A stretch of DNA of 64,000 nucleotides from Euglena gracilis (Eukaryota), in contig CP154954.1 of assembly GCA_039621445.1 (NCBI GenBank), forward strand, positions 22,518,954-22,582,953, given 5' to 3'. The notes beneath the pieces were generated by a model. The model ran no database searches. It worked only from the letters and a program-made list of their open reading frames with translations, and had not been told where the DNA came from. Positions 14,891 through 55,742 of this stretch are shown in pieces (position 1 is the first letter of the stretch; the number at the start of each line of letters is the position of its first letter). Made by a program: the position numbers and the translations under genes.

Positions 14891-15497
14891 CTGCGTGACC
14901 CCTCGGCCAGGGGGGCAACCCCAGTCCAAACAGACAACGGGGGGGGGGTCGGATCTCGGGCCTTGGAGTGCCTGCAATGGAGTGCCTGCAGGCCCCCCCC
15001 CACACCCAGGTGGGGTCGGCACCGCCTTAAAATTCAGCGGCCGACATCGCCCTGCTTGTTCGCAACCCACAACCCTCCCTTACAGTAAAGAACTCACCAA
15101 AAATGCCGATGACACCCCCATTGGGCCGCTCAAGACAAGTTCAGTTTAAGGCTGCCAATCTTCCCTCCTTGGCACTATTGGGTACAAAGGGCACCCTCGG
15201 ATGTGGATTACTTGGTTTGCTGTTTGCTTGCCGCAGCTGCCACACGTTTCAGAAAAGGTGACTTTCTCCCACAGGAATGAGAGGCGAGGACCGGTTAGCA
15301 CCTTGCCCCTCGGGGGTCAACCGCCCTTAAAAGCATCTTAAAAGCACCTCAAAAATATCTCAAATTCATCCGAAAAAAATTACCACGTCTTCGGCGGAGG
15401 GTTTAAAAAAAACCGAAAATATTTCGGGCTGGGCCACTGATGGTGCGGAAAGGGACAGATCCCCTGGGGTAGAGTCTGTGGCCATGGAATCCTTTGC

Positions 15498-15540
15498 CGA
15501 GGGTCCACGGGCGAGTCTGCCAAAGGCTCCGACTCCAAGC
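15498..15540 (-). CDS. Gene 1 exon (LESEPLADSPVDP), probable GC donor
   Basis: catggcag acceptor; CG|GCAAAG donor gives phase 1 to 2. Confidence 0.5.
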
Positions 15541-15964
15541 CTGCCATGTGCAAGGGACTGCTCAAGGGGGCAAAACTCCGCATAAAAGCACCGACATCCA
15601 GCTGTGAGCGTGCATTTATTTGTTGGGAGTTGCAGCCAAATTTTTAAGCAAAAAAAAAGAAAGCCAAGAAAGTTTAACCATTTTAATCCATTTCACCAGT
15701 TGGTCATTTTTGGCCACTCAGATAATTGGTAACTTGACTGCACTTTGGCTGAACCAGATCTAGATTTAGTTGAGTCCACCCCAGGGATACGTTACTGGGG
15801 GCTCCTGCTGAGGGTGGCCTCCAACATCACAAAACCCTGCCCAATGTCAGCGGCGGCAGCCAAAGTCAGCCGGAGGTGAGTATCACAAACATGACACCAG
15901 ATCGTTGAGAGGCATCCGGGGGACACATCATTGATTTCGTTCCTAAAATCGGCATGGTCGACAC

Positions 15965-16010
15965 CCTCGAAGTTGGGGATTGGCAGGGGGGAATTCTCAT
16001 TCTGGACTGT
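15965..16010 (-). CDS. Gene 1 exon (TVQNENSPLPIPNFE)
   Basis: aaccgcag acceptor, G|GTGTCG donor; phase 0 to 1. Confidence 0.55.
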
Positions 16011-16205
16011 CTGCGGTTCGGTTGTGCGTGTTGGACAGGGGGAGGGAGGGCTGTACGGGAAGCCTGGTGGGCGCGATGCAAGCAAAATTTTGACCTTTAA
16101 ATCGGTGCCCCTGGGAAAGGAGGGGTGGGGGTGGTCGACTCTCCACCACCCATCAGGCCTGCATAGCCCTGAGGCGGGGGGGGGGGGGGGGTTCGCCGGC
16201 TGAAC

Positions 16206-16327
16206 CCACTGGGGAAGGAAGGGGGTGGGGCGTCGGCCAGCTCGGCAATCCCTGGCCGTCCGCTGGCTGTGCGTGGCGGAGAAGACAGAGGTGGAGGACG
16301 AGGCGGAGGAGGAGAGAGGGGACATGG
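16206..16327 (-). CDS. Gene 1 Ser-rich exon (MSPLSSSASSSTSVFSATHSQRTARDCRAGRRPTPFLPQW)
   Basis: catcgcag acceptor, TGG|GTTCAG donor; phase 1 to 0. Confidence 0.6.
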
Positions 16328-16691
16328 CTGCGATGGGTGGACCGGGCCATACCATTGCCGAAGGGCACGTCCAGGCAGACCGGGCGATGGAACGTCCGGG
16401 GGGTTTTACCCTTCTGCAAATGAATGAGAATTCAACTATTTGACCTAATGTTAAATGGGGAAATGGTGTTTCAACGCCTTCAGAGGTCAGAGAAAAAAAA
16501 TCGAATCAAAAAATTGTGAAGAAAACTGGTGCTCCAACGGACATGGCATGATCTAAAGAGCAAACCAAACACCACAGAACCAAACTGTGGTCCAACGTTG
16601 GCAAAACATCCACCGTGCACATGTCTGCATGAGGCATGCTGAAGATGTCACAGGAAGCAATTGTATGGGCCAGGCTGCTGGTTTGGCTCAC

Positions 16692-16740
16692 TGCAAGGTG
16701 CTGGAGCGGCGGCAGGAGCAAGAGCTCTGGCGGAGCTTTC
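16692..16740 (-). CDS. Gene 1 exon (ESSARALAPAAAPAPC)
   Basis: aaacag acceptor, strong A|GTGAGC donor; phase 0 to 1. Confidence 0.65.
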
Positions 16741-17025
16741 CTGTTTGATGGTATGATGGTGTGAAACGTGTGATGATATGATATAGGTGAGAACAACAGT
16801 GATGTTTCAATGGTTTTTCAGACAACGACGCAACGATGGGGTCGGCGCAGCCGTGAAAAGCTGTAAATTCCATTGTGTTTGTTTTTGTGCGGGTGTGTGT
16901 GCCTGTCTGTCTGCCTCCTCCCTCTGTGCTGAAGCTTGTTCATGACAACAGCATTTAATGAATGAACCTTGACGAATTGCTCGGTGCTTGGCCGTTTATT
17001 GTTTTTTTTTGAAGCACTTGCACAC

Positions 17026-17109
17026 CTTCAGTGGCCTCGCTTTCTCCACCGCTGCCGCTTTAGCCGCCACTGTGTCTTGCAGACTCTGCAGCATCAACCG
17101 GGCCAGGTT
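17026..17109 (-). CDS. Gene 1 exon (NLARLMLQSLQDTVAAKAAAVEKARPLK); 5' end set by a non-conventional junction (alternative AG start at 17085)
   Basis: AAG|GTGTGC donor; the upstream boundary is inferred from end-pairing with 19092-19080. Confidence 0.7.
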
Positions 17110-19092
17110 GACCACCGGGTTGGATGAGAAGCACCAGGGAGACTCCTTTGAGCAAATCGTCCCAGAGCATAACCGAAACTGCCACTGCTTTTTATCCGCA
17201 ATCAACCTCTGCACATGGACTGTTGGCAAACCAAATCGGCCCATCTGTGGTGGAGAAGCCATCACTTGTCTTGTGCACGCTGAATGTTTGCAAAATACGG
17301 ACAGGCAGCCAACATTAGATTGGGACACATTCTGGCAGCTTTTGTAAGCCTGCAGACAAAAACCAAATTTTTGCACACTGAAACCGAACAGACCAATCAT
17401 AGCAACTTCATTGATGAGCCCCAATGGTTCGCAGGGCCTGGTTGACACAAAGAAGAACGTGGCTCAGGTTTCTTTGCAACCCTGGGGGGGGGGGGCGTGA
17501 TTTTTCAGCCAAAGAATGCACTGGGTGAGCATCTTTGTTGGTTTCCATCCAAAATTAAACAAACAGTACATTTTTTTAGCATGCATGTATGTATGCATGC
17601 ATGCATGTATGTATATACATGTATGTATGAATGTATGCATACGTGCATGCATGTCTGTATGTTGGTATATGTATCTGTATTAATGCATGCATGCATACAT
17701 GCAAGCATGCATTCATGCATGCATGTATGCATGTATGTATGCGTGCATGCATGTGTGTGTGTGACATTAACGTGTGTTTCGGGACAACCCCAGACTTGGT
17801 TGGGGTTGTCTCATTATTTCAAAGCAAAAAATTCCAAATGTGTTTCCCCGATTTTCCACCATTTTTCAACTTCAAGTACTTCGGATTTTTGTGGATGAAG
17901 CTGGATCCTGCTTTCTTCCCGCAAATGCCGAAGAAATTATGCTGCACAATTTTTTTTACCAACCCTCAAATAATCACTTTCACTCCTCCAAAAACCAGCC
18001 AGTCATTTTTTTTTTGGAAAACCAGTTAGTCACTGCCCCCCCCCCCCCGAAGGGCGCTGGCCATTCTGGAATCCAAGGGAAAAACAATGACAAAAATTTT
18101 GGCGGCTTCAGGTCTCTTCAGTGTTTTTTTTCCTTGACCTGGGAGGGTTTGTCTAGGAGCCTGATTTACAAATTAAAATACCTAGAAAATACTTTTTCTG
18201 GATTTTTTTTTACAGCCAACCATTAAAATTACAATTTTTTTTGATAATTTGTAATATAATTTTTGTAAATGGTCACCTATTTTTGAAAAATTTTGCACAT
18301 TTTTAAGCATATATATGATTAAGATGTGTCTTGTTTGAATGCCTCATACACAGGAGGTTAAAAAAAACACAACCTCATTCATCTTATCTTTGATCTTTAT
18401 TTTTGAATGAATTTTCGTTTTTTAAAAGAAGATAAAAATAGGTGAGACCTGTAAAAAAAAGGCAAGATGGTGTTGGGTGCAAATTGCTGAATTTTTTTTT
18501 CAAAAATAGACAAGCTCCAAAAGTCTTTGGCAGACGATTCCAAAAAATCTGGACACTTTAATGAAAAGATGGGTGCACAACTCCTTTTGGATGTTTTGTT
18601 GTTTTGCTGGTTTTTGTGAAACTGTTGGTCACCCCAAAAATTAAATGAGCCAGAACAATGTGGCGCTGGGAACTTATTAGCAAATAGTGGAGCTCAGAAT
18701 GTGTGGTTCTCAAATGTCAAATAACCACCACTTCCAAGGAATTATCTGGAGGATTCCCTGAAACCCAGTGTACAAAGGGGGCGGTTTGCGGCCTGCTTGT
18801 CATTCCCCCATTTCCTTCAGCCCCAGCCATCGCTGCCACAATCATTTAGTCCCTGGCCGACCCCGCCCGGGGGTGATGATTTTATTCAGGGAGAATGGAC
18901 CGGGTTTTGGCCCGGACCCCCCCCCCGAAATAGATTCCTTCTCGTCCTGACCTCGATTTTTCATTTTGAAAAAAGGTTCATCAGTTGTTCATGCATTGCC
19001 TTTTAATTTCGAGAAGCTCACTTTATTTGTTTATGTTACAAAGACCTTGGCGGACGCACCAAATGGACGCCTGGCCCCGTCCAGCCCGGGCC
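17110..19092 (-). other. Putative euglenid non-conventional (non GT-AG) intron, 1983 nt
   Basis: 5' end GGC-CCGGGCTGGA pairs with 3' end TCCAACCCGG-TGGTC (9 of 10 bp); +4..+6 pair with -6..-8; both junctions are Y|R; the splice is in frame. Confidence 0.6.
17578..17762. repeat. Degenerate (GCAT/GTAT)n repeat inside the non-conventional intron
   Basis: Seen directly. Confidence 0.9.
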
Positions 19093-19196
19093 GTCCACCG
19101 CACTGGGGGGCAGGTCGTTCCGCACCGCGAACTGCACCGCCACCGCGAGGGCGTCGTCCCCGAGCCGCAGCACCAGCTCGTCGCTGCGGCCGTCAT
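19093..19196 (-). CDS. Gene 1 exon (DGRSDELVLRLGDDALAVAVQFAVRNDLPPSAVD), PFU-like motif
   Basis: caccacag acceptor, very high GC3, G-D-D-x(3)-A-x-x-F-x(4)-L-P pattern. Confidence 0.8.
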
Positions 19197-19775
19197 CTGT
19201 GGTGCGTGTGCAGGCGGCCCAGCGGTTTTTTTTCTCGGACCCGAAGGAGGGGGGAGGTCAGGACCACTCACCTGCCCCCCGGCTCGGGGGGGACTCACCC
19301 CACCCCTCCCCCCTCTGGGGCAACCAAACTGAAAAAATACTCCGCGGAAGCCTCACCAGAGTCCACTTTGCCTCCAAAAAAAAATTAATTTTTCAAAAAA
19401 TATCGCGAGAAAGCGAAGATTACCTTCGAAGGTGTTGGCCAACATCCCTGGCGCAGCTTTTGCCGCATGCACACCTGTCCCGTGTTGCTGTTGCTCTCTG
19501 GACTCCCATGTGGGCAACTGTGCCAGGGGGGCAGCATATGGGCTCATTCACTGGACAGGACGTTTGTGGAAAGGCGCCGACGGGACGGCCACCTTGAGCA
19601 TGGGTCCGTTGGTGGGCAACAATGCTGCCCATTCTGAACCCCTGACGGCCTCCGTGAAGGGCACCTGCGAGTTCTTCCCAGCCGGCTGCTGACCGGATCC
19701 GCAGGCGTTGCGGATCCGGTGTGTCCCCCCTCCCCCCCGCCACAGAGGTGCACGGCAGCGAGTGGAAAGGCACAC

Positions 19776-19812
19776 CGAGGTCGATCGACAGCACGAGCAC
19801 CACCGGCGGCTG
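19776..19812 (-). CDS. Gene 1 exon (QPPVVLVLSIDL)
   Basis: ctgtccccacag acceptor (NAGNAG), G|GTGTGC donor; phase 1 joins the next exon to give SIDL-D-DGRSDEL. Confidence 0.75.
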
Positions 19813-20288
19813 CTGTGGGGACAGGGAGTGGGCGATGTGAGCAGCGGTTCGCCATTGAACAAAGGCCTTGCAAACAGGGGGGGATGGCCAAGTGGAAAAT
19901 TTCACTTGCATGTGTAAAAAAATACACATATACAAAAATCCTTTCAACATTCTATCGAAAGGAACTAAGGAGAATTCCATGTCTTATCCAAAACGATTTG
20001 CTGAAAGATATCAACATAAATGTAAACATATAAATAGATAAATGGATACATGTAAAAATTTACAAAAAAAACTGCACAAAAATTTCTCGCAGGAATTTCC
20101 CCCCTCAAACAAGCACTGGAAAAAATCGAACCACAAAAACTGCAAAAAAAAAACTGCATAATGAGCATTTTCCCCTCCCTGCTGCACAACAAGTGCCAAC
20201 AATGAACAAACATGCCAAGAACCCAAAGGGAAAACGACGCCATTGCCATTGTGGGGGAGGAGGTGAGGGCTCACGCCTCGGAGGGACC

Positions 20289-20359
20289 CCGCATATGCAG
20301 CTAGCGGCGGCGGGCGGCCGCTGGGCCCCCGTCTCCTCGGCGCGGCGCCATCCGCACCC
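20289..20359 (-). CDS. Candidate gene 1 exon; frame and donor unresolved
   Basis: gtgctcccccag acceptor followed by a GC-rich island; several possible donors. Confidence 0.35.
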
Positions 20360-21023
20360 CTGGGGGAGCACAGGCGGCACTGGGGGACCGGCAGTGCCGG
20401 CGGGGCGGACCAGAACCCCGGCCCGTTCCCCGCGGCCGTGTCCCGAAGAAGACCCCAGAGGTGGTCTGCAGGGTCCACGGCTACCAGGAAGAACCACTGC
20501 TCAGTCAGGCAAAGGGACTGCTTTAATGATCTCGGGGGTTTTTGCTCAAGTGCTACGCTTGGCCCTGATGGAAGGCAAAACGTGGGGGCCAACCTTGGGG
20601 TGGCCAAGTTTGCATGTGAGGATTCGGCGGGTCATGAGCAAGGCCAAAAAGCCTAAAAAAAATGGGGGGGGCAAGGCAGCAAGTTAAAGCCGAACGCCAA
20701 CTTCTGAGGGGCCAAATTCTGCATATAAAAGAGGGAGGAGAAGGAGGCCCAAGCGTCCGGGGGGGGGGGGAGGGGGGCAGAACACTTGGGCTGGCTAAAC
20801 CCCTGGGGGACCCTGGGGGGTGGGTTGAAACAGACCTGGAAGAATTAAAACGAGCCTAAATAGTCCGAGACAGCCTGCTTTTCAAAGGACAACACTTGAA
20901 TACTTTGCGTTGAACAGCCCATTTTCGACCCATTTTGAAGGTGGTTTTTGGGACGTTACCTTTTCATTATCACATTTGTTTCAAAAGAATTCCCCCAGCT
21001 GTCCAGCTGCCCTTCGGCCGGAT

Positions 21024-21314
21024 CAGGCTGTTTTTTTTACCAACCCCGGGGGGTCTGGAGTGCCTTGGGGTGCCTGCCCAGGCAGGCACTACCCCCCCCC
21101 TGGGGGTTGGATTTCGGCCTGTGCCCAGGCACATTCCTTTGAAAATAGGCCATTTTTGGCTCCCGGAGTCTGTGCAAGGGCACCTTTGGCCGTGTGCTCC
21201 CCCCTTAGATGCCGTGTGCCCCCCCCCGGGGGTTGGATTTGGAGTGCCTTGGAGTGCCAGCCCAGACAGGAACCCCCCCGAGGTGGGGTCAGCACCCGAC
21301 TAAAATACAACCTG
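21024..21314. mobile_element. hAT MITE, family A
   Basis: CAGGCTG…CAACCTG; TSD GGCCGGAT/ACCCGGAT. Confidence 0.75.
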
Positions 21315-23855
21315 ACCCGGATCTCCATTTGGTGGCCCTCAGTTTGCAGCTGCAGCCAGAACGCCTGAAGGGGGTCTTAATGCAACACTGTGCTGGGGGA
21401 ATCAACAGTGGGGAGGAGGGGATCAAAAAAAATCAACTATGACGCATTCATATGATTTTTGTTGTTTTAAAATTGTTTCTTTGCTGGTTTGACCTGGGAG
21501 TCGTTGAAGGGCTGAAGAACCCCATCCCGGAGGGCCTAATCAGCACCCCCCCCCCCCCCCGGAAGCTGGCCTCAAGCCACGTATTCACCAACTTGAAAAA
21601 AATGCCCGAATGTCAGCAAAAAAAAATGCAATTCTTGACCTGAAACTTGACCATTTCGCCCAGTATGGCGTGTCTCGTTACTTTCGGAGGCTTGGTGTGT
21701 CTTTAGCACGAGGAAAAACTTCCTTTGTAATGTGCTGGAATGCGTATGAAATTTTTTTCAGAAAGGGAAAAATTTGTTGGTTTAAAAAAATTGATTTTGC
21801 AGAAAATGAAAAATACAAATCTGAGAAAATACATGAAGATGCAGCAGAGTGCGAAAAAAGAAAATTTGAAACATTGAAAATGAAATACTAATATTTGAAA
21901 AATATATTTTCCCCATCTCCAGTGCACAGCGTGGGAAGAAAATCTCTTGCAAACCCGGCTTCTGGCTATGGGGAGTGGGTGGGTCGGACCACCCCTCCCA
22001 AAATCTCGAAAGGAAGGGGGGGTCAGGACAGTCCCCCTTCCACCAATCTCAAAACCCAAAGATGCCTACACATTGGTGAGCACAGCGAAACGGACAAACA
22101 GAGAAATGGCTTGCACAATGGTGGAATTGCAGGGACTGGATTTTGCAAGGGTTTTATCATTGGATGATGATGTCAAAATGTCCAAATGAATTGAAGCGTT
22201 TGTCAAACAGTGAGTTTGCTGTGGTGAATGATTGGAATGGGTCGGCAGCCCCAAACTGAATACATATTTCTTTGAAAGGTTATGAAAGGTTATGCACTCT
22301 GGAACGTTATATCGTGTGCCGGTCATCCTCCCAGAGTTTGCCTCTTGTGCTAAGCTTGCAACCTTGACCCCACTGATACTTTGACTTTGCTGACCCATTT
22401 GCGTTTGGCCTACAAGAGGTTCCTAACGTGCAAACCCCCCAAAATACCCCCCCCCCCGCAGGTTTTCGCATTCGCCCTTGGTCAGGACCAAATACCAGTG
22501 TGGGGGTATTGTAAATTATCAGGAAAATGTTCAAAGTTGTGAACGTTGCGCGGCACTGGGTGAGCCATGTACAGCCCAGGTTGGTCCGCCTATTTACAGA
22601 GGCTTGCAGGAGACGCCGCGCCCGGCAGAACGGGTCATCAAATGGCGTCAACACAGACGACAGGGGGAACAAGGAAGACAAGAGCAGACACACAATCTTC
22701 CGATCCGGCAGGGTGGCTGGAGTCGCACATAGGCCTCAGCTTAAAGACTCCAGGTGGGCCCACTGGCTGGGAATTTTGGAACAACTCCAGAAAGTCACCA
22801 GATGAGGAAAAAAACCAAGGGGGACCCCAGGAACCCCCCACTCCCCGAGGGGAGGGTCCTGGGGTCCCCCTGACTGGGAAAAAATTCGCTTTGGCGCTGC
22901 GCGCCAATGTGGAAATGAGGGTTTTAACACGGTATTTTGTGGATTTTGTTCCCAAAAATTCGAAAAAGTGCAAAAAAAAACAGACATTTCTGGCAGGTTC
23001 CTTCCAGGTTTTTTGTGTGGCAGGAAAATTTTTCCAGTGCTCTGTGCTGGTCACTTGAAAATTTTCCACAAACTGGGGCTGCTAACAGATCGCCTCTTAG
23101 GGGGGTGGTACACTCAAAATTCCACTGGATGCTTTTGGACTGGCTGCAGTCCAGCCACCCCCCCCCCCGCCCCGGAACTGCAAATCCTTAAGCCGATACC
23201 TGGTTGCACAGCAACTGCGGGTCAGCTGAGTCTCGAAATGTCAAAAAATGGGGAAGGTGACCGCCCACGAAAGCGGTTGGGGAGTTGGCCGGGGCGGTTG
23301 GTACCGGCTGGAAGGGTTTGATGGGGAAATTAGCAAAACCCTTCTGGCAAACCGGAAACATCCCCCTGTTGGAGGTTTTTTTGGGCCTGGGTTTTTGGTT
23401 CCGGACCCACCCACCCACCCTCCGGAAGGGAGGGGTGCTTGGGGGGATGCTTTTGGGACGTCAATCACTTCCTCCCCCCCCCCCTGGTCGGTCAGTCACT
23501 CTTGCCACATGGCCAAAAATGGCCAAAAATCAAAGGATTTTGGCCAAAAATTCAAATAATTATAATTTCGGCGCCAGGGGAGCACTTCTGGACAATCCTG
23601 GCCGACCTCACCCCCAGCCCGGCGGGGGGGGGGGGGCTCTGGAGCTAAAAAACCAATCGAACCCCTCGGGGGTGGGGTGGGACACACCTTAAGCAGTGGT
23701 ATGCCCCCACCCCTGTGTCCAACCAACACTTAGGTGGCAAAGTGTGGTCCGAATAGACACGGAGTATCTTTGAAATGACCGCACAAGAGTCCCACCCACC
23801 CTGCCCCGCCCACTGGTTTGGGACAGGATGGCTGCGCCGTCCCCGAACGGCCAAC

Positions 23856-29445: not shown

Positions 29446-29708
29446 GTTGAAACCCACCCATGCACCCCCCTCCCCGGTCGACCCACCCACCCAACCACTG
29501 AAAACCTGCCCAAAAACCGACCGAAAATTTTTATATTTTTTAATTTTGTTTTTTTTTAAATGGCAGGCCTTCAGCCAGGTTGGACAGAGGGTCAAACGCC
29601 CCAAAATACACACCCACTGAGGTCAAACAATACTAGATCACCTGAGAGGAGGCTTAATAACCCCCCCTCCACACACACATATATATGCATATATATACAC
29701 ATATATAC

Positions 29709-29710
<2 letters not shown>

Positions 29711-29739
<29 letters not shown>

Positions 29740-30011
29740 TGTATGTATGTATGTATGTATGTATGTATGTATGTATGTATGTATGTATGTATGTATGTAT
29801 GTATGTATGTATGTATGTATGTATGTATGTATGTATGTATGTATGTATGTATGTATGTATGTATGTATGTATGTATGTATGTATGTATGTATGTATGTAT
29901 GTATGTATGTATGTATGTATGTATGTATGTATGTATGTATGTATGTATGTATGTATGTATGTATGTATGTATGTATGTATGTATGTATGTATGTATGTAT
30001 GTATGTATGTA
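29711..30011. repeat. (GTAT)n microsatellite, ~300 bp
   Basis: Seen directly. Confidence 0.97.
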
Positions 30012-30015
30012 CATA

Positions 30016-31168
30016 TATAAACCCCCCCAAATACAACCCCCCAAATATAAACCCCCCCTGAGGAACTTGAAATCCCGCCCGAATATAAAACCCCCCTCCG
30101 GCGCAAAGGCGCCGGAAGGAAAAAAATTCGACAAAATATCTCCTAAAATTGTGATTTTTGGCAGATATGGGAGCAATTTTTACCAAAAGCGTGTGAAAAC
30201 TGCTCCTTCGGCCGAAAATTTTGACCCCCAAGGGTGGGCGTATTTGTGATTTTAGACCGAAAAAGTGACGACTGGATTGTTTTTCAAACTGAATATAACC
30301 CCCCCCCCCAATATAAAACCCCCTGGGGGTCTTGAAATATAAAACCGGGGGTTTTATATTTGGGGGGTTACCAATAGTTTTATCTATTGAGGAGGATGGA
30401 TGGCTGTTCACAAAGGAAGTGGGGTTTCAATATTTTTTAAAAAAATTAAACGCAACCATGAATCCCTTTGTGAATAACTTCATTCATGTTCCAGTTGCGC
30501 GACTGCATAATCACAAATAGCTTCTCAGCCGCTTTGGCACGTCCGACTGCCGGAGGCACTGGTTTACACTTTAGACCAGGGCGCCGTGTAACGAAGTCAG
30601 AGGGGAGTCCAGTTTCGACGGGGTGAAACCAATGGGGTGGCTGGGGTAAAAGAAGGTGGCTGACTGCTGAGCCCCGGACAAAAACAATAACTCAGTTAGG
30701 CAAAAAAAAAGAATCTTGGTGATTGAGGGTCCAAAGGTCACAAAAAAAAACTCAACCCCCCCCAAATATAACCCCCCCCCCAAATACAAACCCCCCCCCA
30801 AATATAAAACCCCCCCTGAGGACCTTGAAATCCCGCCCAAATATAAACCCCCCCCTCCGGCGCGAAGTGCCGGAAGGAAAATTTTTTGACAAAATATCTC
30901 CCAAAATTGTCATTTTTGGCAGATTTGGGAACAATTTTTACCAAAAACATGTGAAAATTGCTCCTTCGCCCGAAAAATGAAGTTTTTGGACCCCCAAGGG
31001 TGGGCGTATTTGTAATTTTGGACCAAAAAAGTGTCTACTGGAGCCCACCGGGAAGTTGATTTTTCCGACCGAATATAACCCCCCCCCAAATATAAAACCC
31101 CCCCTCGGGGTCTTGAAATTTCCGCCCAATTATAAACCGGGGGGGTTTTATATTTGGGGGGGGGGTTT
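30016..31168. mobile_element. Two related MITE copies (about 30016-30370 and 30755-31168) with CCCCCCAAATATAA repeats
   Basis: Direct homology between the copies; inverted TATTTGGGGGG ends. Confidence 0.65.
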
Positions 31169-53327: not shown

Positions 53328-54114
53328 TCATCAGGTTCCCGCTTTAATCTTAACCTCAAGGCAAGGTACTGATCCTAATTTTTGTGAAATGCTTCGATCC
53401 TGTCACTGGAGAGATAGGTTCCAAACTTCTTCATTCTCAATCCATACACTCTCCAAGCCACCCGACACTTACAAATTTCCAACCTGCCTATAAAAACTCT
53501 GCCATGTTCACAGATTTAGGTGATAAAGGTGAGGAACCAGCAACTCTATTATCGCATTTCTTTCTTTCAAAGTTCCAAGGTAACCTATGTGGACAACGAT
53601 GAGAAACACTGTATTGCTGTAACAAATGCTTTGAGGAAGCTTGGCAAGGTTGGATGGGTTTTTCATTACCAAGCCATTGAAAAACAATTCAACAGACTAA
53701 AAGCTTTAAAAGCACGGAATTGTCTTAAAGAAACTGGCACTCTCTTAATGGAAGATAGTTTATAAGCTCTCTCTGCGGAGAATGTTAGAAGTTTTTTATA
53801 ATGGAATTCAATGCATTTTTTACGAACAACAATGTTTTCTTCAGAAGCACTTTTGGGCTTGGGTCAAATAACTGGATAGCTTGGGGCTTTAAGGAGATAT
53901 TTCTTTTTATAAGGCCTCGTCGTAATGCGACATTTATGATATATTCAATGCAGATGATAACGTTTTTAGTTGGATAGATTCCTTTCGGAGCATTTATGGG
54001 AGAATTTGGGTTATTCAGATTCTGAAGAAGAATAGAACCCATGCCATCGAATATTCTCAACAGAATCGTATGTGCATGTTCATACAAATGTTATATTACA
54101 TCATGTTATATGTC

Positions 54115-54304
54115 ATGTATGTATGTATGTATGTATGCATGTATGTATGTATGTATGTATGTATGTATGTATGTATGTATGTATGTATGTATGTATGTAT
54201 GTATGTATGTATGTATGTATGTATGTATGTATGTATGTATGTATGTATGTATGTATGTATGTATGTATGTATGTATGTATGTATGTATGTATGTATGTAT
54301 GTAT
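54115..54304. repeat. (GTAT)n microsatellite
   Basis: Seen directly. Confidence 0.97.
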
Positions 54305-55742
54305 ATAGCATATGCATAACATACAAATCAACATAAATACACATACACACACCTACATATATGGATATTTATTTATTATATGCATACGTGCTGCACACAA
54401 ATATAACCATGTGTGCAAAGAAATGTACACATGCAATGGAAGGGTGTTGTGATCCTTCTGCAGATGCACTCGTGTTTTAGGTACGGCCTGGGTGCGGTCT
54501 TGGCTGCCTTGGGACCCTTCCACTGCACCCAGACATTGGCTGGACTGGGCAGCACTGGGGGTGGGGCATCGTGGGACAGCATGTCGCAGAGTGACCGGCG
54601 TCTGAGGAGGGGACAAAACCAATGGGGCTTCCCATGCATCCTCTGAGCAACAGCTATGAACTCCCCCGAGCAATCTGTGAGCCTATACTAAAAAAAACGC
54701 CAGGGTCGGCGTTGTTCCTGTGACACCATGCTGAAGGTGTTTTTGGCCATTTTGAGAGGATTTTTCTAAATGAGTTGAAATTGAATGAAATGTATCTGTG
54801 GACAGATTGCCCCCCATTTTCGAGGCGTTGGCCAACTGAGTTGAACTCGTTGTGTGACGTGAACGGTGCCTTGCTGTGATTTGAAAAGGGAATTGTTTGA
54901 GTTGTGAGTAAAGATCAAAAAAAGCCCAAAATATTCACAACGCCCTTTTTTCAAACAGCCCATTTGTGTGGACAGATAGTGTCAACAACATAAGTGTTCT
55001 TGGCCCTGGTTTTTGACCCTTCCTCGGGGCGGTCCATAAGAGAGACGGGAAGCAGGGGGGAAAAAACAAATTTGGTTTTTTTTGCTTTTTTCTGTGTTTC
55101 TCGATTTGGCAAAATTTGCGGTTTTTCACCTTTTGTTGCGTTTTCTTGTGTTTTTTTTGTGCTTTTTTCCCCAGCGATTTTTGGATTTTACTGAGGATTG
55201 AATTTTTGGCATTTTCCCCCGAGACCAAACGTTTGCCAATTTTTTGTCATTTTTGCATTTTTGGTCATCAAAATGCTTACTTTTATGCAAAGATGGAAAA
55301 TTTTCCCTGACAAAACCGAAAATTTTCTCTAATGCTTATTTTAATGCAAAAATGGAAAATTTCCCTGACAGAGCCGGAAAAAAATTCTAAGTCCTCTCAG
55401 TGGAAAAGTGTGATCCCAGGGGAGCTCCTGTAGGATTTTCCATGTTATTTGTGTTTTTAGTGTTTTTTAGTGTTTTTTTTGTGTTTTTGTGTTGTTTTTT
55501 GTGTTTTTTTTTGCATTTGTTTGCGCCGTGTTTCTTGAGGGTCCATGTTGCATTCCCCCCCCCCCCCATGCGGGAAGTTTTTTTTCTGAAGGACCGCTCC
55601 TTAAAGACCGCCCTTAGGCCAAGGAACGGCCGAGGACCGATCCGGAGATCGAACGGGGTGAAAAATTTTAAAGTCAAAAACACATTTTTTGACATCTTGG
55701 GTGGGTGGGCGATGGTACAAGGATGCCAGAAATCACTTTTTC

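Follow-up and report, generated by a model that had tools for sequence, protein, structure and literature searches.

Positions 17110 to 19092, read on the minus strand of the 64,000-nt stretch of Euglena gracilis DNA that was analyzed here (the window), very probably constitute a non-conventional intron of the euglenid type in a protein-coding gene. The ends of this intron pair, its borders are neither GT-AG nor GC-AG, as in the euglenid non-conventional class, and the exon joint that its removal creates is used exclusively at the depth of RNA sequence available. The junction, the helix and the geometry of the helix are direct observations. Base-paired non-conventional introns abound in Euglena-type genomes, as is already established, and there is nothing out of the ordinary about this one. 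The features on which the argument turns are collected in Table 1.

Table 1. Coordinates of the intron, its flanking exons and associated elements (positions in the window)
Feature	Position	Strand	Details
Non-conventional intron	17110..19092	-	1,983 nt; phase 0; coding-strand ends GG..TC; RNA joint 17109->19093
Upstream coding exon	19093..19196	-	104 nt; ends ...AGTGCGGTGGAC; RNA joints 19196->19776 and 17109->19093; open frame
Downstream coding exon	17026..17109	-	84 nt; starts AAC; RNA joints 17109->19093 and 16739->17025 (cut +1)
5' arm of terminal helix	19080..19089	-	CCGGGCTGGA; intron +4..+13
3' arm of terminal helix	17115..17124	-	TCCAACCCGG; intron -15..-6
Inner second helix, 5' strand	19070..19074	-	CCAGG; in computed duplex
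Inner second helix, 3' strand	17134..17138	-	CCTGG; in computed duplex
Unused candidate GT	19097..19098	-	GTGGA; real junction 6 nt further downstream
Unused candidate AG	17086..17087	-	24 nt into the downstream exon
Imperfect (CATG/CATA)n microsatellite in intron	17571..17766	.	similar arrays at ~29680-30019 and 54102-54307

The exon joint in RNA and the host gene

Read directly on the minus strand, the junctions are GTGGAC|GGCCCGGGCTGGA ... TCCAACCCGGTGGTC|AACCTG: on the 5' side the last exon base is 19093 and the intron begins at 19092; on the 3' side the last intron base is 17110 and the exon resumes at 17109. The RNA joint skips exactly these 1983 nucleotides, whose ends on the plus strand are GA..CC. 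An intron had been predicted here from the raw sequence, with a span of 17102-19100; the intron is present, the span was approximate and the true borders are the ones just given. The predicted exon joint, GCGGTGGAC-AACCTGGCC, is the one that is found in RNA. In run X20 it is crossed by 8 reads (4+4) with 8 start places and in run X24 by 10 reads with 7 start places, which makes 18 junction reads, a small number, from two raw-read RNA runs of the same species. The junction is also present in contigs assembled from runs X1 and X2: these stop at 19093 and 17117, and the loose letters at their ends run exactly into the opposite exon. In these four runs, which come from at least three studies, this junction is the sole form. 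Within the intron, the bins of the raw-read runs have a depth between 0 and 0.6, most of them at or close to 0, compared with approximately 3-6 in bins that hold exons.

(A technical note: the aligner leaves an ambiguity of 1 nt in the position of the joint. The alternative, GTGGA|C...GGTGGT|C, has the ends CG..GT and is equally non-GT-AG. Placement of the reads left out the microsatellite listed in Table 1 as a repeat.)

Both junctions fall between a pyrimidine and a purine (C|G and C|A), just as the original prediction had it; the pyrimidine of the upstream one is the final C of the upstream exon, and the downstream exon begins with AAC. The upstream exon (19093-19196/7) is covered by pieces of assembled contigs (X1 record 5 and X2 record 14), and so is the downstream exon (X1 record 4 and X2 record 10), whose other end is the border of a conventional GT-AG intron. 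Splicing is in phase 0 and yields ...LPPSAVD|NLARLMLQSLQ..., the product that had been anticipated, in a reading frame that stays open across six RNA-supported exon joins.

The gene contains three conventional and three non-conventional introns, a mixture of the kind that has been described for Euglena genes. The conventional 5' splice sites read GTGTG (5/5, twice) and GCGTG; the two further non-conventional introns have non-GT-AG borders and paired ends. Taken by themselves, this mixture and the GTGTG sites would indicate E. gracilis or a near relative as the source. Four exon/frame translations of the gene matched no Pfam family, the entire window gave no match in Rfam at gathering thresholds, and the 73-aa stop-to-stop frame that holds the 34-aa exon found no match among proteins of 129-2000 aa. 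The sole HMMER match of the 34-aa exon itself, P0001 (E 3.6e-05), is 1,494 aa long, repetitive and spike/jelly-roll-like; this protein is unrelated and was rejected.

The terminal helix in comparison with known introns

The two arms of the terminal helix, CCGGGCTGGA and TCCAACCCGG, pair at 9 of 10 positions with a single C.A mismatch, and a second helix, CCAGG with CCTGG, lies further inside; both had been called from the sequence and both reappear when the ends are folded. The duplex formed by the two 35-nt intron ends has a computed energy of -33.2 kcal/mol, compared with a mean of -23.6 (sd 4.0) for 500 mononucleotide shuffles (z -2.41; fraction as low, 0.012). This control is not a sharp one, in that one of the conventional introns of the same gene reached a fraction of 0.030. 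(The ends taken for that intron, the third conventional control, were 17023/16739, 2 nt off the true 17025/16741.)

A 5' spacer of three nucleotides, GGC, precedes the helix, which starts at +4; on the 3' side the helix ends at -6 and is followed by a spacer of five, TGGTC, and then by the purine of the exon. CCG at +4 to +6 pairs with CGG at -8 to -6, as is characteristic of the class, and the two triplets occupy the places of its published CAG and CTG motifs. The conserved letters are not retained: each triplet agrees with the motif at two of three positions, the middle pair being changed on both sides. Taken a little more widely, CCCGG at +3 to +7 matches 4/5 of the E. gracilis consensus CCAGG, CCGG at -9 to -6 matches 3/4 of the consensus CCTG, and the two departures compensate each other.

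Comparison with the model of euglenid non-conventional introns (Milanowski et al. 2014/2016; PMC3935182, PMC4770533; reviewed in PMC11282704) brings out the same non-GT-AG ends, the same pairing of +4..+6 with -8..-6, Y|R at both junctions, a downstream exon starting R-A-C, a short direct repeat at the junctions and the co-occurrence of conventional introns in one gene. The difference is that CCG/CGG here stands in place of CAG/CTG there, with compensation of the changed middle pair; deviations from CAG/CTG have been reported as common among non-conventional introns. The intron is about four times as long as the reported mean of ~520-540 nt and lies within the range reported for E. gracilis non-conventional introns (up to 4,682-5,931 nt).

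A stricter standard is provided by the experimentally derived code of Nomura et al. 2025 (PMC12501133), 5'-N3CDG-/-CH'GN5-6|R, a code that accounts for no more than 61.2% of the non-conventional introns annotated. The 3-nt and 5-nt spacers, the purine (A) at the start of the exon, the outer C and G of both triplets, the complementarity of these triplets and the presence of more pairing inside all agree with the code. The middle letters do not: the code excludes C in the middle of the 5' triplet and G in the middle of the 3' triplet, so that CCG/CGG falls outside its strict form. Changing the register is of no help, since sliding by 1 gives CCC/CCG, while the N6 option places CCG opposite CCG, which does not pair; these fall outside the code too. 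The intron thus belongs to the 38.8% outside the strict pattern, and yet there is no detectable retention of it in RNA. It adds a natural example of a C-G middle pair that is spliced without visible retention although a code derived from knock-ins excludes it, and this suggests that a long helix can make up for a departure from the motif.

How would such an intron be removed? In the pre-mRNA, +4..+13 would pair with -15..-6, reinforced by the CCAGG/CCTGG helix further inside, and this pairing of the intron ends would draw the ends of the exons together. The non-conventional system would then make two cuts, one 3 nt upstream of the helix at its 5' side and one 5 nt downstream of the helix at its 3' side, before a purine, and ...GTGGAC would be joined in frame to AACCTG.... 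By analogy with the literature on the class, removal would probably come after that of the conventional introns and be independent of U1-type recognition, and the intron may be released as a circular RNA. The joints listed include none that runs backward between 17110 and 19092, though libraries of the poly(A) type would not reveal circles. From raw sequence alone, the arrangement typical of the class (3 nt, helix, 5 nt, purine) sufficed to predict the junction, and RNA reads have confirmed it.

Rival readings of the RNA evidence

Might the apparent splice be something other than RNA processing? Reverse transcriptase could have jumped between the similar octamers CGGTGGAC and CGGTGGTC, which lie at the two borders, or the reads could stem from an allele or paralogue into which nothing was ever inserted. 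There is a basis for the second of these suggestions: alternative letters make up approximately 40% of the RNA reads at 17093 and at further exon sites, which is evidence that expression comes from two alleles or copies. At 17093, which is 16 nt from the junction, the majority of reads nevertheless have the window's own letter. Template switching, for its part, yields minor products, while in the four runs, which represent at least three studies, this junction is the only form and next to no reads cover the intron; the junction also follows the geometry of the class to the nucleotide. An artefactual origin of the joint is accordingly hardly credible.

A different question is whether the spliceosome also operates at this place. 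A GT at 19098 and an AG at 17086 bracket the intron, as the original prediction pointed out, and their use would remove 30 more exon bases, i.e., 10 codons, in frame; if some transcripts were spliced in this way, an isoform 10 residues shorter would result and two splicing systems would be in competition. The pair does exist in the sequence, the candidate 3' site is a CAG like the conventional consensus, and introns with both kinds of signals have been described, as "intermediate" introns and, in PMC12501133, as 0.8% of E. agilis introns. The RNA speaks against its use: of the two joints proposed for comparison, GTGGAC-AACCTG is found and AGTGCG-AGTCTG is not among the 15 joints listed of 18 (at least 3 reads being needed for listing, with min_share 2), and the contigs assembled in X1 and X2 contain the non-conventional junction only. 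Position 17093, which lies within the 24 nt that would be deleted, is read 11 times in X20 and 10 times in X24, compared with 8 and 10 junction reads, respectively. With no GT-AG joint listed, and with the depth at 17093 about equal to the number of junction reads, the proposed competition is unsupported at this depth. GTGGA agrees with GTGTG at 3/5 positions and lacks the G at +5, while both of the real GT-AG introns of the gene score 5/5; the tract before the candidate AG has 7 C in 20, compared with 8-13 in the real conventional introns. The borders that are used, GG..TC, likewise lack the GTGTG-like 5' site and the CAG 3' site of a conventional U2-type intron. Finally, E. gracilis removes conventional introns before non-conventional ones; if the GT-AG pair were usable, it would be expected to prevail, and it does not. 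Use of the GT-AG pair in a fraction of the transcripts is, on these grounds, highly improbable. The transcript retains the ten residues that would be lost if gene calling relied on GT-AG introns alone, and with the exon join GTGGAC|AACCTG the gene model is settled.

Identification as an intermediate (hybrid) euglenid intron was considered and rejected on similar grounds. Those introns have GT and AG near their ends, and ends that pair, and so has this one, but its GT lies 6 nt upstream and its AG 24 nt downstream of the borders that are used, the GT resembles GTGTG poorly, and neither is used in RNA at this depth among the 15 joints listed of 18.

Short direct repeats and the question of origin

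Transposable elements of the hAT superfamily make 8-bp target-site duplications, and their termini are often CAG...CTG. The octamers TGGACGGC and TGGTCAAC, which directly flank the arms of the helix, match at 5 of 8 positions, as had been noted in advance, and it was proposed that they are the fossil of such a duplication. According to this proposal, a hAT-like DNA transposon or MITE left the intron behind as its remnant: the 10-bp helix arms are its terminal inverted repeats, TGGACGGC and TGGTCAAC are the surviving 8-bp duplication, and splicing removes the element together with the equivalent of one copy of that duplication (3 + 5 nt). The match is better than most random pairs of positions in the window provide (mean 2.00; nominal P(>=5) = 0.034), the gene's two further non-conventional introns reach 6/8 and 5/8 in the helix-consistent register, and the class has fixed spacers whose lengths, 3 and 5 nt, sum to 8. 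A recently gained intron of the E. agilis gapC gene has eight-nucleotide direct repeats at its junctions. A MITE-like origin, complete with repeats resembling target-site duplications, is a published hypothesis for the class; the idea is accordingly not new. Comparable features are found in introner elements (of Micromonas and others), in the non-canonical introns of Fritillaria and Amoebophrya and in hAT-type MITEs: there are inverted repeats close to the ends and a direct repeat that is short and imperfect, so placed that taking out the element along with one repeat equivalent would restore an uninterrupted coding sequence.

In that register the gene's three conventional introns match at 4, 4 and 3 of 8 positions, so that the junction consensus alone supplies much of the signal. 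Short direct repeats are found at the junctions of 84.4% of all E. agilis introns, the conventional ones included, and repair of double-strand breaks is a published alternative explanation of such repeats. A better repeat exists in a different register, namely CGGTGGAC (19100-19093) and CGGTGGTC (17117-17110), with 7 of 8 positions alike; it overlaps the helix arm and was not accepted as evidence, since repeats of this quality occur within +-8 nt of two random points in 10.5% of 4,000 trials (P = 0.105 with offsets allowed). The termini of the intron are single-copy in the 64-kb window and the supposed duplication is degenerate (5/8), unlike what is seen in hAT MITEs and transposon-derived introns, and the ends are recognized through RNA pairing rather than through co-opted GT and AG; no transposase came to light, nor did the literature yield a paper tying hAT elements to euglenid non-conventional introns. 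The match of 5/8 stands, then, while its reading as a fossil hAT duplication stays hypothetical, and descent of this intron from a hAT-like element is unlikely. One can also think of the entire class as hAT-like MITEs with CNG...CN'G termini, whose 3-nt and 5-nt spacers represent one 8-bp target-site duplication and whose removal at the RNA level copies precise transposon excision; with its 5/8 duplication and its CCG/CGG variant, this intron might then be an old member. Such a generalization must be considered quite improbable.

The euglenid non-conventional intron at 17110-19092 does not in itself open a new question: its class forms the majority in Euglena genomes (71.8% of introns in E. 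agilis), and whether the class may have arisen from transposons is already being debated. When the intron was compared with the window by self-BLAST, no second copy of its termini appeared; the comparison returned 69 non-self matches, 67 of which are microsatellite and 2 of which are short internal dispersed repeats.

Joining of the exons in RNA

The junction drawn in the original prediction from the sequence alone matches RNA exactly, and the focal feature (17110-19092, minus strand, 1,983 nt; the extent of 17102-19100 proposed at first was approximate) is confirmed as a non-conventional intron. Raw reads of two RNA-seq runs, X20 and X24 (chosen by the same species label), and two contig sets, X1 and X2 (which share few sequence words with the window), were aligned to 15001-23000; a difference was listed when at least 2 reads in 100 carried it, and a joint when at least 3 reads did. 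The joint 17109->19093 skips 1983 nt; its plus-strand ends, GA..CC, are GG..TC on the coding strand, and it can slide by 1 nt. It is supported by 4+4 reads with 8 start places in X20 and by 10 reads with 7 start places in X24. X1 and X2 contigs over 19093-19196 run on into the start of the downstream exon, and those over 17025-17117 into the end of the upstream exon. In the latter the alignment extends 8 nt into the intron with 1 mismatch, owing to the similarity between the final 8 nt of the intron and the final 8 nt of the upstream exon. Both exon bins have read coverage, and most intron bins have a depth of 0 or nearly so.

Joined reads could in principle also come from template switching by reverse transcriptase or from an intron-less allele. 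Four observations speak against either source: all four runs show 17109->19093 and no other form, the intron has essentially no read coverage, the geometry of the class is obeyed to the nucleotide, and at 17093 most junction-adjacent reads carry the letter of the window itself.

Do two splicing systems compete for this intron, as originally proposed? GT(19098) and AG(17086) are indeed present, and their use would remove 30 more exon bases in frame, but the corresponding joint, 17085->19099, is absent among the 15 of 18 joints listed. Over position 17093, which lies within the 24 exon bases that the short isoform would drop, X20 has 7+4 reads and X24 has 10, approximately the junction read count, so that the shorter isoform is at most a minor fraction. 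The signals themselves are poor: relative to GTGTG, the 5' consensus reported for conventional introns in E. gracilis (PMC11170887), GTGGA matches at 3 of 5 positions and lacks the G at +5, and the tract preceding the AG holds 7 C in 20, against 8-13 in the gene's three real conventional introns. Conventional introns of E. gracilis are reported to leave before non-conventional ones; a usable GT-AG pair would thus be expected to win, and its absence from the joints argues that the spliceosome is blind to it. Competition by the spliceosome at this pair is accordingly highly improbable. (A GTGCGT at 19059-19054 on the minus strand, inside the intron and 34 nt from its start, is by eye closer to GTGTG, at 4 of 5 with G at +5, and is likewise unused in the RNA reads.)

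Intron ends and the non-conventional class

The window is eukaryotic in character, about 50% G+C, with many homopolymer runs, microsatellites and dispersed repeats; Rfam at gathering thresholds returns 0 matches in it. Imperfect (CATG/CATA)n arrays, about 76% alike, lie at 17571-17766 (within the focal intron), about 29680-30019 and about 54102-54307.

On the minus strand the 5' junction reads CCCCCCAGTGCGGTGGAC|GGCCCGGGCTGGACGGGGCCAGGCG (last exon base 19093, first intron base 19092) and the 3' junction CCCTGGTGCTTCTCATCCAACCCGGTGGTC|AACCTGGCCCGG (last intron base 17110, first exon base 17109); both are Y|R, as predicted. The predicted pairing of the ends also holds: 9 of 10 positions of CCGGGCTGGA (+4..+13) can pair with TCCAACCCGG (-15..-6), and deeper inside CCAGG and CCTGG make a second helix. 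Paired as a duplex, the 35-nt ends have an energy of -33.2 kcal/mol, compared with -23.6 +/- 4.0 for 500 mononucleotide shuffles (z -2.41; a fraction of 0.012 equally low).

Non-conventional introns are described as having repeats resembling target-site duplications (TSDs), late removal and circular products (2024 review, PMC11282704), and are reported to make up 71.8% of the introns of E. agilis (Nomura et al. 2025, PMC12501133). The focal intron carries CCCGG and CCGG where the E. gracilis consensus reported for the class reads CCAGG (+3..+7) and CCTG (-9..-6) (PMC11170887). With the GTGTG sites of conventional introns, these signals suggest an origin of the window in E. gracilis or a closely related species. 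It shows every junction preference of the Milanowski model (PMC3935182, PMC4770533). Set against the code derived from knock-in experiments, 5'-N3CDG-/-CH'GN5-6|R, which is reported to fit 61.2% of non-conventional introns (PMC12501133), it has all the geometric elements (GGC spacer, paired triplets, TGGTC spacer, exon-start A and inner pairing); it departs only in having C-G in the middle of the paired triplets (CCG/CGG), a combination that the code does not allow. This makes it a regular class member outside the strict experimental motif, a position shared by 38.8% of non-conventional introns. At roughly four times the mean length reported, it still falls inside the reported range. Introns of this kind are known and very common, and the focal intron is one more of them.

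Junction repeats

Comparing 5 exon nt + 3 intron nt at one border with 5 intron nt + 3 exon nt at the other, the 8-mers TGGACGGC and TGGTCAAC do match at 5 of 8 positions, as originally noted; a fossil hAT TSD is an improbable source of this match. The gene's other two non-conventional introns score 6/8 and 5/8 in helix-consistent registers, and its three conventional introns 4/8, 4/8 and 3/8. Random position pairs in the window average 2.00, with P(>=5) = 0.034 and P(>=6) = 0.0066 (200,000 pairs). Junction repeats therefore exceed background in all introns of the gene and are only slightly higher in the non-conventional ones, in agreement with the literature on Euglena introns in general; in E. 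agilis short direct repeats are reported at the borders of 84.4% of all introns (PMC12501133). A better-looking 7/8 repeat in another register fails to reach significance (P = 0.105 with offsets allowed).

hAT elements generate 8-bp duplications and have CAG-type termini. The arithmetic is suggestive of a decayed duplication of this sort: the two spacers, 3 + 5, sum to 8, and a newly gained gapC intron is reported to have an eight-nucleotide repeat. A limited literature search found no paper naming hAT for these introns, and the termini of the focal intron have no other copy in the 64 kb; of its 69 non-self matches in the window, the (CATG/CATA)n array accounts for 67 and short internal repeats for the other 2. 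Taken alone, the focal intron fits a decayed duplication, a junction consensus or repair-derived microhomology, and the evidence does not separate these.

The host gene

Five further joints lie on the same strand (Table), and joining the exons gives a single open frame from an ATG near 20295 across all six joins. The original prediction had also appealed to a protein helix that the spliced product would complete, an argument that the RNA evidence makes unnecessary.

Table. Further introns of the gene (window coordinates)
Type	Position	Strand	Ends
Conventional	20276-19813	-	GC-AG, 5' site GCGTG
Conventional	19775-19197	-	GT-AG, 5' site GTGTG
Conventional	17025-16741	-	GT-AG, 5' site GTGTG
Non-conventional	about 16669-16342	-	CC..GG as listed, slidable by 2
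Non-conventional	about 16254-15543	-	CA..GC as listed, slidable by 3

With the helix placed at +4, the borders of the two non-conventional introns in the Table become GCC-CAT...ATG-GCCCG|G and GGC-CAG...C(T)TG-CACAT|G. The 5' junctions at 16257-16240 and 19100-19081 (minus strand) are alike, ...GGAC|GGCC(C/A)GGG..., which could be chance, junction consensus or a common element terminus. Exon translations fall in no Pfam family, and a word-indexed search among longer proteins gave no match for the gene; its sole match in a full HMMER scan, a repetitive protein, was judged unrelated.

After a joint from 16255 to 15542, reads and contigs leave at 15510 into unmatched letters, delimiting a micro-exon of 33 nt (15510-15542, minus strand); those letters are absent from 15001-23000, which puts the following exon below 15001 or beyond the window. 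At exon positions 16314, 16680, 16699, 16711, 16732 and 17093 some 40-80% of RNA reads carry another letter, and the micro-exon has a second contig version with 3 differences, so that the transcripts come from two alleles or from nearly identical copies of the gene. Joints that "go back" or "skip 4565" between 16173-16191 and 20757-20777 were set aside as sequencing artefact (homopolymer G/C runs draw hundreds of poly-G reads). At 20875-21408 contig word depth (X1, X2) is 400-1,600, against tens in the gene's exons, and several letters vary, as do 1-nt indels; the stretch is probably a dispersed repeat of many copies that is transcribed, and it lies upstream of the gene or in its first intron.
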